Notes under the pieces: generated by a model
The model's input: the letters and a program-made list of their open reading frames with translations, nothing else
Database searches by the model: none
What the model was told of the DNA's origin: nothing
DNA from: Shigella phage PSD9
Length of the DNA: 64,000 bases
Direction: 5' to 3' (one strand)
Sequence record: MZ561532
Shown: piece by piece, positions 3,282 to 7,530 of the stretch
Position numbering within the stretch: the first letter of the stretch is position 1
Layout of the letters: the number at the start of each line of letters is the position of its first letter
Made by a program: the position numbers and the translations under genes

Positions 3282-3803
3282 TTAATAACCTCGGTCCTGG
3301 CGAGCAAAGTTCTCGGCATTTTTCAGGTAATACAATTTAAAGATTTCTTCAGCAGTCAGACCAAGACCCTGGAACATATTCAGAACGAAATGGAGAATAT
3401 CAATCATTTCAAATTTAATTTCGAGCTGGTCTTCAGGAGACAAATCGTTAATCAAGGTTTCACGACGTTCAGCATGTTGAGCTTTCCAAGGCTTCCATAC
3501 TGCTGATGCATCTTTTTCACCATTGCTCATACCGCCAAGAGAAGTCAGAAGTTCACGGAATTCATCATCAATATAATCTTTCTGATTACGCAGCCAATCA
3601 ACAACTTCACCTGCAGTAGCCAAATCATCAGGATGACGGTTATATTCAGGTTTATCTTTAGATAAACGAACCTGTAATGATTTCTGCATATCAAGCATAA
3701 CCTGCAGAGGGTCTTTATCTTCATGAATCAGAGCATTAAAATAAGCTTCCTCAGCTTTATCAACACCATCAATCAGGTTTGCGCATTCGTTAAAGTGTGC
3801 CAT
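3282..3803 (-). CDS. 56: dCTPase/dUTPase gp56
   Basis: near-colinear match to T4 gp56 (MAHFNECA ... IDDEFRELLTSLG ... EEIFKLYYLKN ... ENFARQDRGY). Confidence 0.85.
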   Translation of the reverse strand: MAHFNECANLIDGVDKAEEAYFNALIHEDKDPLQVMLDMQKSLQVRLSKDKPEYNRHPDDLATAGEVVDWLRNQKDYIDDEFRELLTSLGGMSNGEKDASAVWKPWKAQHAERRETLINDLSPEDQLEIKFEMIDILHFVLNMFQGLGLTAEEIFKLYYLKNAENFARQDRGY

Positions 3804-3867
3804 TATATTTTTCCTTTTTCAATTCATTAATAAGTTAGATAATTATAACATTAAAATTTGTAAGCAA

Positions 3868-4236
3868 TTAGGAAGACCAGCCGGTAAATTTACGTTGTCC
3901 TGAATCCCAGTGAACACCTACGTCAGGAGAATACCTATAATTAAAATCACCGTAGGATTCCGAAATTTCTAAAATATATCTTACAAAATATTCACAAAGC
4001 TCATTAGACCATGAATCAGAATACACCACGAAGTGGAAAGATGATTGGTCCTCATCATCGACATCAATCCATACCCGTTTTAATTTACCTTCCGGCGAAT
4101 CATAAACACCTGAAATATATTCACCTTTAACCGAAAGGCTTCCTTCTTCAAAAGCAGTATTCAAAACAAGCCCTAATTCTCCAGGGCTAGATTCTTCTAC
4201 CCAATCATCATGGGTATTCAATAAAATCTTAATCAT
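3868..4236 (-). CDS. hypothetical protein (122 aa)
   Basis: minus-strand ORF between 56 and the methyltransferase ORFs. Confidence 0.45.
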   Translation of the reverse strand: MIKILLNTHDDWVEESSPGELGLVLNTAFEEGSLSVKGEYISGVYDSPEGKLKRVWIDVDDEDQSSFHFVVYSDSWSNELCEYFVRYILEISESYGDFNYRYSPDVGVHWDSGQRKFTGWSS

Positions 4237-4245
4237 AATATTTCC

Positions 4246-4728
4246 TTAAAAATCAAATATGTCTAATAACGAATTAGTGGTATTAATATGAACTACTGGG
4301 GCTACATAATCATCCATCCATTCGGGATATCTGCGCCCTTCAGATCGGTCATTAGGGTCTAATGTATTTGCATATGCAAAGTTATATGAAATTATATCTC
4401 GATGTTCTTTAGTGTCACCGACAATATTTAAGATACGTTGGCATAAAAAATCATAGTTATCTTTCATATACTCAATACAATACATATCCTTTAAAGCTTG
4501 GGTTGGCGATACTCCTATTTCCAATTTCTTACGGATAACGGCTTCAACAAGATTACCATCTCCTGCTGAAGGTTCAAAGAATGTATTACCGGCCTTAAAG
4601 GATTCTTCACCACAAAGCTTTAAAAGAATTTTTGTACAGTACTCATTAGTGAATACCTCGTCAGTAGATTGTTGACGCTCACGAGATATTTCACCGTTTT
4701 TTCTTGAATTATCAATTGCTAATTTCAT
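4246..4728 (-). CDS. DNA methyltransferase AdoMet-binding module (motifs X and I only)
   Basis: DEVFTNEY ... FFEPSAGDGNL matches motif X + motif I (FxGxG) of N6A/N4C MTases; no (D/N)PP(Y/F); ATG at 4728 with GGGT RBS. Confidence 0.55.
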   Translation of the reverse strand: MKLAIDNSRKNGEISRERQQSTDEVFTNEYCTKILLKLCGEESFKAGNTFFEPSAGDGNLVEAVIRKKLEIGVSPTQALKDMYCIEYMKDNYDFLCQRILNIVGDTKEHRDIISYNFAYANTLDPNDRSEGRRYPEWMDDYVAPVVHINTTNSLLDIFDF

Positions 4729-6211
4729 CAAGACTTACCCCATTCACAACATTTTCTGCATACTGCCATTCTAAATCGGTAATGTTGAAGCGTTCTTGAA
4801 TCATTTCACGGGTCCACTTCTTGGTAAAATCAACTACAGGAGCGTTTTGAACCATTTTTTTACCGCCGGTACCACCGCCAAGTCCTAAAAAATATTGACA
4901 TGCTACTTTAATAGGGGCGTATGAATAAAATTCAATAGCATTTTCGGCTTCTTCAAAAGTATCAAAAGAGGCCCAAGCCTGTAAAGGTGGCTTTTCTTTT
5001 GTAATACGGGTTTTGGTGTTTGTCATAGCACTATAAAATAACTTGCCCATAATAATTTCAGAATTATCAGATGTAGTTGATGAAGGACCCAATTTCCTAA
5101 TAAAGTTCACATAGTATTCTTTTTCTACACCTTCATAATTATTAAGTTTTTCTTTAGTTCGGGTTTTATCTGCTATAGATTTTGCACTTTTATTATTCAA
5201 AATAATAGAAACAAAATCGTCATTATTATAATTATATTTAGCTTTTGTTCTTCCATTAATTAGGGTAAATCCTTGGGTTTCATTTTTAGAAAATTTTGAT
5301 ATCGCCAAAGCTGTTGTCGGTGAAGCAGAAAAGTACTTATTACCGCCATTGCAATCTATAATAGCATAATTTAGCCTTTTTTTAGCTTCAGGCCTGTGAG
5401 ATATAACTCCCATTGAATATAAAAAAGATGCTGGGGTGATAGATATTACATTATCTGCACATTCCAAGGCTTTATCTAAAAATTTCACATCACTCGTAAA
5501 TGGAGGATTCATGATAACTGTATTAAATTTCATTTTCTTAGGGGCCTTAATGAATTCAAATCCAGAGAAACATCCGAAAGTATCAAATACATATCGAGCT
5601 TTATCTGAATCAGTTGAAATGAATAAGATATCGGAAGTATCGTATCCGATAAGAGATAATAATGAAACAATTTCAAGGGATTCAATAACACAAATACGCT
5701 GAGACCAACCCATTGAATATGCAACCATTATATCACTCATTTCAATAAGCGTTTTTGCTGCTTCAAAAGTCATTACATTAGAGGTTTCCGCTGTTTGGGT
5801 GAATTTACCATCCATGGAGTGGATATAACGGTCATAATGGATTTTGGTATCAGGTTCAGATAAATCAAATTTAACAAAGCAGCGTTTTTCTTCAGAAAGA
5901 CCACGGACGCGGTTTGTTATAGAATCCCAATACTCATCAATGTAAATACCTTCAAGAGAAAAAGCTTCATGCTCATTAAGATTTGATTTAATAATTTCAA
6001 TCATGTCTGAAGGCTTAAGGCCTGATTCAAGAAGCTCTTGGATTTTAGCCAATTTTTCAGCATTACCTTGAGGGTCGGCCTTATTGAATTTTTTAGCTTC
6101 TTCAAAATGTTGCTCAGGCCGAGCACTTACACCTTTACCAAAGTAGAAAGGTTTTTTGTCTTGGTCTACTAAGCGATATACCTGATAAATTGTTTCCTGA
6201 TTGTAAGCCAT
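4712..6211 (-). CDS. GIY-YIG nuclease domain fused to DNA methyltransferase catalytic/TRD region
   Basis: N-term GIY-YIG pattern (IYQVYRL ... YFGKG ... R..QH ... E ... N); downstream VIMNPPF motif IV; occupies T4 dam locus. Confidence 0.55.
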   Translation of the reverse strand: MAYNQETIYQVYRLVDQDKKPFYFGKGVSARPEQHFEEAKKFNKADPQGNAEKLAKIQELLESGLKPSDMIEIIKSNLNEHEAFSLEGIYIDEYWDSITNRVRGLSEEKRCFVKFDLSEPDTKIHYDRYIHSMDGKFTQTAETSNVMTFEAAKTLIEMSDIMVAYSMGWSQRICVIESLEIVSLLSLIGYDTSDILFISTDSDKARYVFDTFGCFSGFEFIKAPKKMKFNTVIMNPPFTSDVKFLDKALECADNVISITPASFLYSMGVISHRPEAKKRLNYAIIDCNGGNKYFSASPTTALAISKFSKNETQGFTLINGRTKAKYNYNNDDFVSIILNNKSAKSIADKTRTKEKLNNYEGVEKEYYVNFIRKLGPSSTTSDNSEIIMGKLFYSAMTNTKTRITKEKPPLQAWASFDTFEEAENAIEFYSYAPIKVACQYFLGLGGGTGGKKMVQNAPVVDFTKKWTREMIQERFNITDLEWQYAENVVNGVSLDEISN

Positions 6212-6224
6212 TTTTGTATCTCCA

Positions 6225-6270
6225 GTAGTTGATATGTCTATAGTATCATATCTAGCAGGGATGTAAACTG
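6225..6270 (-). promoter_or_regulatory. early promoter cassette
   Basis: conserved gttgatatgtctatagtatca ... gatgtaaac block (minus-strand GTTTAC -35, TACTAT -10 region). Confidence 0.55.
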
Positions 6271-6275
6271 ATTTT

Positions 6276-6283
6276 TATAAATA
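6276..6283 (+). promoter_or_regulatory. late promoter TATAAATA (plus strand)
   Basis: exact tataaata about 20 nt upstream of the AGGAGG RBS of plus-strand ORF 6305..6505. Confidence 0.4.
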
Positions 6284-6304
6284 ATAATTTAACAGGAGGA
6301 TAAC

Positions 6305-6505
6305 ATGGGCAGTATTTTTTACCAAATCTGGAAATTGGCTGAAAAGAAAGACAAGAAAATGATGTTAGGTTTTCTTGCACTAGATGTGTTCCTTTGGAAT
6401 CTTCTGGTAGTCCCTGTAGCCGCCAGCCAAGGGATAATTTTACCAGCGGTTACAATGGAGCACGTGTTAAGCATAATTGGATTCTTTAGCGGAATTCCTG
6501 CCTAA
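6305..6505 (+). CDS. hypothetical small hydrophobic protein (66 aa)
   Basis: plus-strand ORF in an intergenic gap with strong RBS aggagga and late promoter; hydrophobic segments. Confidence 0.4.
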   Translation: MGSIFYQIWKLAEKKDKKMMLGFLALDVFLWNLLVVPVAASQGIILPAVTMEHVLSIIGFFSGIPA

Positions 6506-7530
6506 ATCTTGGAATATTTTGAAAGTCTCATTTTTGCCATTAAACCTTGGGCTATATTAGCTTTCATATATGCCAGTACATCATTTATATCAGCTTTATC
6601 TTTCATAATCATATCATTTATATCTTTAGAAGGCCATGGAGCCTTGTCCCAGAATAGAACCCTTTCGCCAGCATCAACTAATCGTTGCATACGCTTAATT
6701 GTGTCAGGATGGCGGGGTTCATTGTCCATTACCCAGGCACGAGTTTCTTTACACGGAACCATAGCCAAGTCCAACGACCCGCCAGTAATTGCTATTGCAT
6801 TCGGTACGAATAATGAATCGATAGGACCTTCCATTACCCACACCAACTGACGTTCGTCGACAGTATCCATTCCATATATTTTTGTAGCTTGGTCATGAGC
6901 TTTTATTGTAATATATTTTTGTGGAGCATCTTTACGTAAGGCTCGACCCTGAAAACTTTCAATTTGTTTATTCTTATTGAAAATTGGAATAACCAAACGA
7001 GGCTCAGGCATTTCTTTAGAATAGGTCCCTGGATTGACAGAGTTCACCAATGCCGGCCATTCTTTAGTAAACCATAAGCGATTCCATTTGTTTTCAGGAA
7101 TGCAACGTAGTGTTACATATTTGATAATAGGATGGTCCTTTGGCATTCTATCCAGACGTTCACAGAAATTAAGCTTTTCGATGACAGGCATCTTGGCTTT
7201 AATCTTTTCTGATATCTCCACCTTAGGTGCAGCTTGTCTCCCGAACGATTGCTCTTTATGTTTCTCAAGAATATATTCTCGATATAAATCAGGCTCATAT
7301 TCGTATAGATACTTCTTAATTCCTGCTGAATAGTCACAGTTAAAACAGTGCAGCATTACGGAGCCGTCATTGGCCGGATAGGCCCAAAAACGAGCTTTGT
7401 TCTCATCTTTTAGGGAGTCGCCACATACACGACAACGACAGTTTAATTTAAAATCACTACCAGTTACTTGTCTGAATTTAGGTTGATAATTCAAGGCACG
7501 TACAGCAAATTCTCTATCGACATATGACAT
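6502..7530 (-). CDS. 61: DNA primase gp61
   Basis: 342 aa as in T4 gp61; N-terminal Cys-rich zinc-binding region (CRCRVCGD ... CFNC); synteny next to 41. Confidence 0.85.
   Translation of the reverse strand: MSYVDREFAVRALNYQPKFRQVTGSDFKLNCRCRVCGDSLKDENKARFWAYPANDGSVMLHCFNCDYSAGIKKYLYEYEPDLYREYILEKHKEQSFGRQAAPKVEISEKIKAKMPVIEKLNFCERLDRMPKDHPIIKYVTLRCIPENKWNRLWFTKEWPALVNSVNPGTYSKEMPEPRLVIPIFNKNKQIESFQGRALRKDAPQKYITIKAHDQATKIYGMDTVDERQLVWVMEGPIDSLFVPNAIAITGGSLDLAMVPCKETRAWVMDNEPRHPDTIKRMQRLVDAGERVLFWDKAPWPSKDINDMIMKDKADINDVLAYMKANIAQGLMAKMRLSKYSKI

Follow-up and report, generated by a model that had tools for sequence, protein, structure and literature searches.

Among natural DNA methyltransferases, a few cytosine-C5 enzymes are known to consist of two polypeptides. 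One such enzyme, M.AquI, has an alpha and a beta subunit encoded by overlapping open reading frames (ORFs) (cited in PMC5944983, refs 45 and 46). Here we describe two neighbouring ORFs of Shigella phage PSD9 (record MZ561532), a JS98/Dhakavirus-like T4-type phage. They lie in a stretch of 64,000 nucleotides of its genome, which we refer to as the window. ORF1 and ORF2 divide between them the motifs of one predicted N6-adenine methyltransferase, and ORF1 starts with a GIY-YIG nuclease domain. Like M.AquI, the PSD9 methyltransferase is composed of two polypeptides from overlapping reading frames. Unlike M.AquI, it is predicted to be of the N6-adenine type, it is split between motifs III and IV, its gene order is permuted and an apparently decayed copy of the detached half is left. 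In the literature on PSD9, on split phage adenine methyltransferases and on GIY-YIG-methyltransferase fusions in T4-like phages, we found no description of this layout, of any N6-adenine enzyme whose Rossmann fold is divided between motifs III and IV, or of such an enzyme fused to a GIY-YIG nuclease.

Other described systems share parts of this layout, and in its way of working the unit would come nearest to a Type IIG enzyme. Type IIG/IIL enzymes (Eco57I, MmeI, BpuSI) have the domain order of ORF1 on one chain, an N-terminal nuclease followed by a gamma-class methyltransferase and a target-recognition domain (TRD), and, as with these enzymes, the TRD variability in the PSD9 family fits a change of specificity. 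In contrast to them, the PSD9 nuclease is of the GIY-YIG and not of the PD-(D/E)XK type, there is no helical spacer domain, and the system is phage-borne and known from sequence alone. Its S-adenosylmethionine (AdoMet)-binding half is encoded in trans, with no self-contained AdoMet site in ORF1. PMC2731913 describes MmeI-like proteins whose GIY-YIG partner is a separate protein, and their layout differs from that of PSD9. In Lactobacillales, GIY-YIG domains are fused to NPPY methyltransferases or share an operon with them (Dunin-Horkawicz et al. 2006, PMC1564403). Unlike in PSD9, the GIY-YIG domain is there of the Slx1 type and positioned at the C-terminus of a COG4123 methyltransferase, and the proteins are bacterial, unsplit and have no TRD of this type. 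The T-even GIY-YIG homing endonucleases (Seg, I-TevI) resemble ORF1 in the N-terminal position of the domain, in the insertion between conserved genes and in their presence or absence in relatives. However, the DNA-binding part of ORF1 is a methyltransferase-TRD body instead of NUMOD or helix-turn-helix elements, and its GIY-YIG subtype is LEM-3-like.

The ATG of ORF2 is positioned 14 nt ahead of the ORF1 TGA in another frame, just as the first-pass annotation of the locus had stated. The overlap including the stop is 17 nt and the frame offset is 1. The ORF finder started ORF2 at a TTG (4731), and we adopted the ATG at 4728, which is the start in the homologues and in the gene calls of other contigs and gives a protein of 160 amino acids (aa). 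The ORF1/ORF2 pair was also found in two independent metagenome assemblies of related phages (loci L091 and L092 of our survey), in the Klebsiella Jiaodaviruses PKO111 and KpV477, in Vibrio phage phi-ST2, in Aeromonas phage Ah1 and in a distant contig (L006). ORF1 of L091 is 85% identical to that of PSD9 and ORF1 of L092 about 52% (52.5% over aligned codons). In the Klebsiella phages the pair occupies the same locus, between the primase gene gp61 and the dCTPase gene gp56, and in phi-ST2 and Ah1 it stands at unrelated loci. The junctions differ between the pairs: the overlaps are 17, 17, 14, 14, 4 and 8 nt with frame offsets of 1, 2 or 0, and in Ah1 there is a 39-nt spacer with a GC hairpin followed by a T run. 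A purine-rich Shine-Dalgarno-like run precedes the ORF2 start in every readable junction (including L091, L092, L001, L002 and L006), and no conserved slippery site was found at the junctions of the compared pairs. In comparison with L091, the ratio of non-synonymous to synonymous substitution rates (dN/dS) was 0.04 for ORF2, 0.09 for the following gene ORF3 and 0.05-0.28 for segments of ORF1, with parts of it at 0.11-0.25. Since the pair is present in independent assemblies, has differing junctions and is under purifying selection, ORF1 and ORF2 are two genuine genes maintained in four genera of T4-like phages. The conserved methyltransferase motifs are divided between these two separate conserved genes.

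ORF2 matched PHROG 21201 ('DNA methyltransferase') with E=3.7e-64, far beyond chance. Its residues 23-28 form motif X (DEVFTN) and residues 50-59 motif I (FFEPSAGDGN). Both had been recognised at first pass together with the lack of motif IV, and indeed no (D/N)PP(Y/F) was found anywhere in ORF2. We additionally found motif II (CIEYMKDN), motif III (ANTLD) and a conserved tail (D.SEGRxYPxW). The possibility that 'EGRRYPEW' in this tail is a degenerate motif IV was rejected, since in L008 the same tail directly precedes a separate 'MKFDNVIMNPPF' gene. The ORF2 family consists of 56 clusters of 128-224 aa, nearly all of them stand-alone, and its conserved elements are TGEVFTP (X), FLEPAAGDGNF (I), EYMKDN (II), ANTLD (III) and the same tail. 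Some members match Pfam N6_Mtase (PF02384). The AlphaFold2 (AF2) model of ORF2, with a predicted local distance difference test score (pLDDT) of 88, consists of a helix, beta1, alphaA, beta2, alphaB, beta3 and the tail, that is, a three-stranded half-Rossmann. Its Foldseek neighbours were the N-lobes of HsdM, M.BseCI, CamA, BsaXI, DrdV and PacII. As read from the motifs, the content of ORF2 (X, I-III) is the exact converse of that of ORF1 (IV onward), and the earlier view of the two ORFs as complementary parts of one enzyme is supported.

ORF1 is identical to 'hypothetical protein PSD9_103'. Its motif IV, VIMNPPF (residues 232-238), had been noticed before, and Pfam and fold searches now place it within an amino-methyltransferase fold. 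N235, P236 and P237 are invariant in all ORF1 homologues, very distant ones included, and position 238 is F or Y. NPPF is followed by 261 residues and not by the about 170 which had been suggested as a possible TRD; the variable block that contains the TRD spans residues 227-412. The AF2 model of ORF1 (pLDDT 80.6, predicted template modelling score 0.76) contains the GIY-YIG domain, a linker, a seven-stranded methyltransferase fold and a second domain. Its strands are beta1' at 173-176 (CVIE), beta2' at 195-198, beta3' at 215-217 and beta4 at 229-234, which leads into NPPF and beta5 onward, and the pLDDT is about 83-93 across the N-lobe (141-226). ORF1 is predicted to have a complete TaqI-like fold and not to be half of an enzyme.

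In the alignment with intact relatives, the ORF1 N-lobe lacks the GxG loop (G-loop) and the FTP motif X. It reads 'CVIESLEIVSLL' and the intact relatives read 'LDSCSGMGNFPL', with 'CVIESLEIV' at the place of their 'LDSCSGMGNF'. The beta1' strand passes directly into the helix; the AdoMet-contacting loop is deleted, not just substituted. An acidic residue is retained at the end of beta2' (ILFISTD). Because the G-loop and motif X are lost, ORF1 has a catalytic loop but no canonical AdoMet site. Neither this N-lobe nor the recombining hypervariable block described below was seen in the first-pass annotation. We rejected the N-lobe as a decayed copy of ORF2 from a recent duplication, since hhalign profile and BLASTP comparisons found no detectable similarity between them. 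An ancient duplication may be its origin.

Foldseek matched the body of ORF1 to PH1948/METTL5-type enzymes over the whole length of the latter (TMt 0.61-0.63), and phmmer aligned residues 190-259 with PH1948 residues 70-148. The fold and the TRD resemble solved gamma-class enzymes, with MmeI and BpuSI among the fold matches. Residues 304-497 matched PHROG 314, which is labelled 'homing endonuclease' (E=1.8e-50). PDB sequence searches with ORF1 and ORF2 gave nothing significant, and folds were compared instead.

The order of the motifs had led to an initial assignment to the beta class, which we had to revise. The order IV-VIII, TRD, X, I-III, known from circularly permuted enzymes (beta-class and M.BssHII-type C5 methyltransferases), is present in PSD9 at the gene level, with the ORF1 N-lobe before motif IV, and on one chain in Aeromonas relatives. 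However, all sequence and fold neighbours are gamma-class: the Pfam matches are Eco57I (PF07669, the best methyltransferase match of ORF1) and N6_Mtase, and the matches by fold are TaqI, CamA, BseCI, HsdM and MmeI. No match to the beta-group PF01555 was found in profile searches. Judged by its sequence and modelled fold, the ORF1/ORF2 enzyme is of the gamma (TaqI/Eco57I/HsdM) lineage and only its gene order is beta-like. It has no homology to the classical beta group, and the permutation arose inside a gamma lineage, with PSD9 showing it in the form of separate genes. Compared with M.TaqI, CamA, M.BseCI and HsdM, motifs X and I-III are on a separate polypeptide encoded downstream. The motif IV chain differs from gamma-class enzymes in having a G-loop-less N-lobe and an N-terminal GIY-YIG domain.

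Nucleotide identity between PSD9 and L091, measured in 60-nt windows, is 98-100% over ORF1 codons 1-226, 66-71% over codons 227-445 and 80-95% downstream. The breakpoints of this divergence are near window positions 5530 and 4975, and the left breakpoint coincides exactly with the start of stand-alone C-half genes. Synonymous divergence (dS) between the two is saturated over the TRD, and the block of residues 227-412 is under purifying selection (dN/dS 0.11). Within each of two separate clades, identity over the N-terminal 226 aa is as high as 93-100%, but over residues 227-412 any two alleles share only 51-81%. Such a pattern is typically seen where restriction-modification enzymes swap their target-recognition modules. 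We take it as an argument that DNA recognition by the block is functional and diversifying. The swapping of the TRD block among near-identical phages implies different DNA specificities.

The GIY-YIG block that had been proposed at the start of ORF1 was confirmed by profile searches. Residues 22-104 scored 37.1 bits with Pfam PF22945 (LEM-3_GIY-YIG), for which the curated cut-off is 27 bits (E=3.8e-9), and the phi-ST2 homologue matched the same family with E=6e-16. Y12, G25, R31, E80 and N100 do not vary among 11 homologues, and conservation reaches 90% or more at Y9, Y23 and H35. The AF2 model places a domain with the GIY-YIG alpha/beta fold at residues 9-93. The nuclease keeps all the catalytic residues, and its predicted active site is intact. 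In the Ah1 counterpart the N-terminal nuclease domain is T5orf172-like instead. The nearest solved structure to the ORF1 domain is PD-T4-3 (9u75), with 27% identity over 113 aligned residues. PD-T4-3 is a restriction nuclease with which E. coli defends itself against T4 and which is specific for 5-hydroxymethylcytosine DNA, and a related domain is here carried by a phage of the targeted group.

The wider survey covered 88 loci around ORF2-like genes. A word-indexed protein search with ORF1, and then with a 15-sequence profile, found only 8 close homologues, and an exhaustive search reached the distant ones; the family is widespread in phages, with 282 matching stretches in IMG/VR. Stand-alone genes made up 64 of the 69 non-redundant N-halves. 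At 17 loci the partner was a C-half only, starting 'MKFD..NPPY'. It was positioned directly downstream of the N-half in L008, L041, L026 and L031, where the order is the canonical gamma one and the split falls between motifs III and IV. In L014, L021, L036 and L086 it was directly upstream. The C-half of L008 is 50% identical to ORF1 residues 227-497. Partners with a GxG-less N-lobe were found at about 15 loci, including all six GIY-YIG fusions and the nuclease-less L057. About 10 loci had partners with an intact G-loop, whose N-lobe and small neighbour are paralogues (E 1e-5 to 7e-16), and at 21 loci no partner was recognised within the fetched flank. Fused permuted single chains, C-half then N-half, were present in Aeromonas phages (L007, L015-17, L020) and in ZPAH1, in which the permutation is shown explicitly by the PHROG 11371 and Pfam matches. 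The C-half-only and fused cases show that the small module can be the sole N-lobe and therefore complements C-halves.

We read the architectures [N-C], [N-C][N], [N*-C][N] (PSD9, N* being the leftover N-lobe), [C][N] and [C-N] as a series of the kind expected from permutation by duplication. The family also includes the canonical split [N][C]. L046 (140-4914) has a tandem array of C-half-only genes, three in number (290, 295 and 271 aa), which all start MKFDVV.GNPPY, and only one N-half, found 1.7 kb downstream of them. This suggests that one AdoMet-binding subunit is common to several catalytic/TRD subunits and yields several specificities.

Two further loci of the survey are described here for their own sake. 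The Ah1 genome (L013, L017) contains the split pair, in which a T5orf172-like nuclease is joined to a G-loop-less methyltransferase and the small N-half is separate. About 13 kb away it also has a paralogue of 415 aa that is fused and circularly permuted. In L004 (1587-5453) the small N-half is two genes downstream of an intact 367-aa methyltransferase, which is flanked by ORFs of 398 and 324 aa. In the 324-aa ORF a 'KFGEH' N-terminus is followed by Walker A and DEAD-like motifs, and this may be a helicase split around the methyltransferase gene.

The pair is part of an inserted, mobile cassette of three genes. When compared by blastn with the empty-site Dhakavirus IME341, homology stops at window position 3848 and resumes at 6277, and about 18 bp lie between these points in IME341. 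In 47 phage records, megablast of positions 3800-6600 matched nothing but the flanks, and the cassette is absent from most Dhakaviruses. The collinear gp61/gp56 site is polymorphic for its presence, being empty in IME341 and occupied by an alternative cassette in Dhakavirus MX01. The flanks as a whole are 93-97% identical to Dhakaviruses. By side, identities of 83-94% (gp56) and 96-97% (gp61) were measured, which is at most suggestive of flank co-conversion. In MX01 a T4-type Dam stands at exactly the same site behind the same leader (6209-6276), in agreement with the first-pass remark that T4 has its single-chain Dam at this locus. The MX01 Dam used as a tblastn query found no T4-type Dam in the window (nothing below E=2).

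Our preferred reading, to which we assign a probability of roughly 0.6, is that ORF1 and ORF2 form a translationally coupled two-subunit N6-adenine methyltransferase of the gamma lineage with a nuclease, which would be a restriction-modification- or homing-like module. We infer that ORF2, as a separate AdoMet-binding subunit with motifs X and I-III, would dock on the beta4 side of ORF1. The active site would then be composite, with AdoMet supplied by ORF2 and the NPPF loop, motifs V-VIII and the TRD by ORF1, and the vestigial N-lobe of ORF1 would be displaced or re-packed to admit ORF2. Such a complex would methylate adenine at a DNA sequence defined by the TRD. The GIY-YIG domain would cut unmarked DNA of a competitor phage or the host at or near these sites, leading to a restriction-like and/or homing-like spread. 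The layout of the unit would be of the single-chain Type IIG kind, but with a GIY-YIG cutter and the cofactor half in trans.

Some observations weigh against this proposal. AF2 confidently packs the own N-lobe of ORF1 exactly where ORF2 must sit, so canonical complementation requires movement of the N-lobe. ORF2-like genes are also found beside the partners with their own intact G-loop, which means that the small subunit may act otherwise than, or beyond, supplying the missing half. Finally, the count of promoter-like sites in the region did not exceed the shuffled expectation in a consensus scan.

The two-subunit reading can be extended to a more speculative picture, which we consider unlikely. 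The cassette would be a self-spreading hybrid of restriction-modification and homing, in which one TRD serves both the cut and the mark and ORF2 displaces the N-lobe, switching the complex from cutting to methylating. Unmarked DNA of a co-infecting phage or the host would be cut and the cassette copied in, TRD swaps would shift the specificity, and every stage of permutation by duplication would be preserved in the family.

The same data could be explained if ORF1 were a free-standing GIY-YIG homing endonuclease, with the dead methyltransferase body as a DNA-binding/base-flipping module, no methylation, and ORF2 as a passenger or with another role. We consider this doubtful. Although the N-lobe without a G-loop would suit such an enzyme, NPP(F/Y) is invariant in all homologues, which is unexpected for a mere binding scaffold. 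The presence or absence of the cassette beside gene 56 also points in this direction, as do the hypervariable DNA-recognition block, the PHROG 314 match on ORF1 residues 304-497 and other homing endonuclease genes near related loci. The vicinity of gene 56 is a known target region of T4 SegF. However, ORF2 is always kept, overlapped and under strong constraint (dN/dS 0.04), and the same C-half occurs free of the nuclease with an N-half partner (L008, L014, L041).

It is rather improbable that ORF1 alone is a complete active methyltransferase with non-canonical AdoMet binding, and that the role of ORF2, then a truncated paralogue, is to assist or regulate (for example by dimerisation, a cut/methylate switch or another partner). 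The AdoMet-contacting loop between beta1 and the helix is deleted and motif X is lost, despite the predicted complete seven-stranded fold with a TRD and the acidic residue kept at the end of beta2'. N-half genes do follow partners with an intact G-loop, to whose N-halves they are paralogous, but in the C-half-only and fused permuted proteins the small module is the only N-lobe. Finally, the interruption of one gene by a frameshift, which was the second option of the first-pass annotation, is hardly credible, whether it is put down to a sequencing error, to a recent mutation or to programmed frameshifting. The 17-nt overlap in different frames and the Aeromonas single chains with the same module order would fit it, but the two genes are kept in independent assemblies and four genera with differing overlaps and offsets, in one case with a hairpin between the genes. 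In addition, the junctions have no slippery site in common, ORF2 is equipped with an ATG and a Shine-Dalgarno-like run of its own, 64 of the 69 non-redundant relatives are stand-alone small genes, and both genes are under purifying selection.

Members of the family are annotated as 'hypothetical', or the small half alone as 'DNA methyltransferase', so phage methylome predictions are probably wrong at these loci. The architectures of the family, from the canonical split through the permuted split with an intact or decayed N-lobe and the shared N-half to the fused chain, look like a living series of circular-permutation intermediates. To our knowledge, this process has so far been studied mainly through models and laboratory evolution. 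Should the nuclease and the methyltransferase share one TRD, they would be a compact, naturally reprogrammable cutter/marker pair and give T4-like phages a new means of competing. A split permuted methyltransferase fused to a nuclease, with the functions predicted here, should be of interest to specialists in restriction-modification and phage genomics. The features of the locus are listed in Table 1.

Table 1. Positions of the cassette, its genes and domains, and the neighbouring genes in the PSD9 window
Feature	Position	Strand	Basis or remark
ORF1 (PSD9_103), 499 aa: GIY-YIG nuclease, linker, G-loop-less N-lobe, motifs IV-VIII, TRD, C-terminal helical part	4712-6211	-	
GIY-YIG nuclease domain, ORF1 residues 1-106	5894-6211	-	
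Degenerate N-lobe of the methyltransferase fold, ORF1 residues 141-226	5534-5791	-	AF2, Foldseek, alignment with intact relatives
Hypervariable recombining block, ORF1 residues 227-412: catalytic loop, motifs V-VIII, TRD	4976-5533	-	
Motif IV NPPF, ORF1 residues 235-238	5498-5509	-	direct sequence reading
ORF1/ORF2 overlap, 17 nt	4712-4728	-	Shine-Dalgarno-like run (GGGG), 10-14 nt ahead of the ATG of ORF2
ORF2, 160 aa, predicted AdoMet-binding N-half	4246-4728	-	PHROG, family alignment, AF2, Foldseek, dN/dS
ORF3, 122-aa acidic protein	3868-4236	-	accompanies the ORF1/ORF2 pair
Inserted 2.4-kb cassette: ORF1, ORF2, ORF3 and upstream leader	3849-6276	-	blastn against IME341
Match to a sigma-70-like promoter in the leader ahead of ORF1 (TTTACA-16-TACTAT, with TG)	6240-6267	-	consensus scan; weak
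Primase gp61	6502-7530	-	gene order
dCTPase gp56	3282-3803	-	gene order

The order of transcription on the minus strand is gp61, ORF1, ORF2, ORF3 and gp56. Both metagenome assemblies, L091 and L092, keep ORF3, and there as in PSD9 it always starts about 10 nt after ORF2. A copy in Klebsiella phage PKO111 (L001, 4916-5275) is 55% identical and unannotated. No match to ORF3 was found in Pfam, PHROG, NCBIfam or PADLOC, and the NCBIfam and PADLOC scans in general returned no useful family. The consensus scan alone pointed to a terminator-like GC hairpin with a T run inside ORF3, on the minus strand at window positions 4169-4188.

In Escherichia phage MX01 (L089, 1568-2907), Dam is preceded by a 186-aa 'hypothetical' protein with a PD-(D/E)XK-like motif ('FDIVIEK..IIEIK'). 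This protein has a weak Pfam match to DpnII (E=9e-4), which is below the cut-off, and together with Dam it may be a pair of a GATC nuclease and a methyltransferase in a phage.

In phi-ST2 (L002, 2986-5144) the pair is inside a 7-deazaguanine cluster (folE, queD, queC, queF), beside an HNH 'mob-like' homing endonuclease. A link of this pair to modified-base metabolism may exist. For the system as a whole we set a link to 7-deazaguanine modification aside, since the PSD9, Klebsiella and Aeromonas copies are without such neighbours and a homing endonuclease gene is near the phi-ST2 pair. We read the phi-ST2 pair as a mobile insertion in the cluster.

On its right, the insertion site is bounded by a plus-strand ORF of 66 aa at window positions 6305-6505, which separates the cassette from gp61. 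This ORF is conserved in MX01, IME341 and PKO111, where its annotation is hypothetical.

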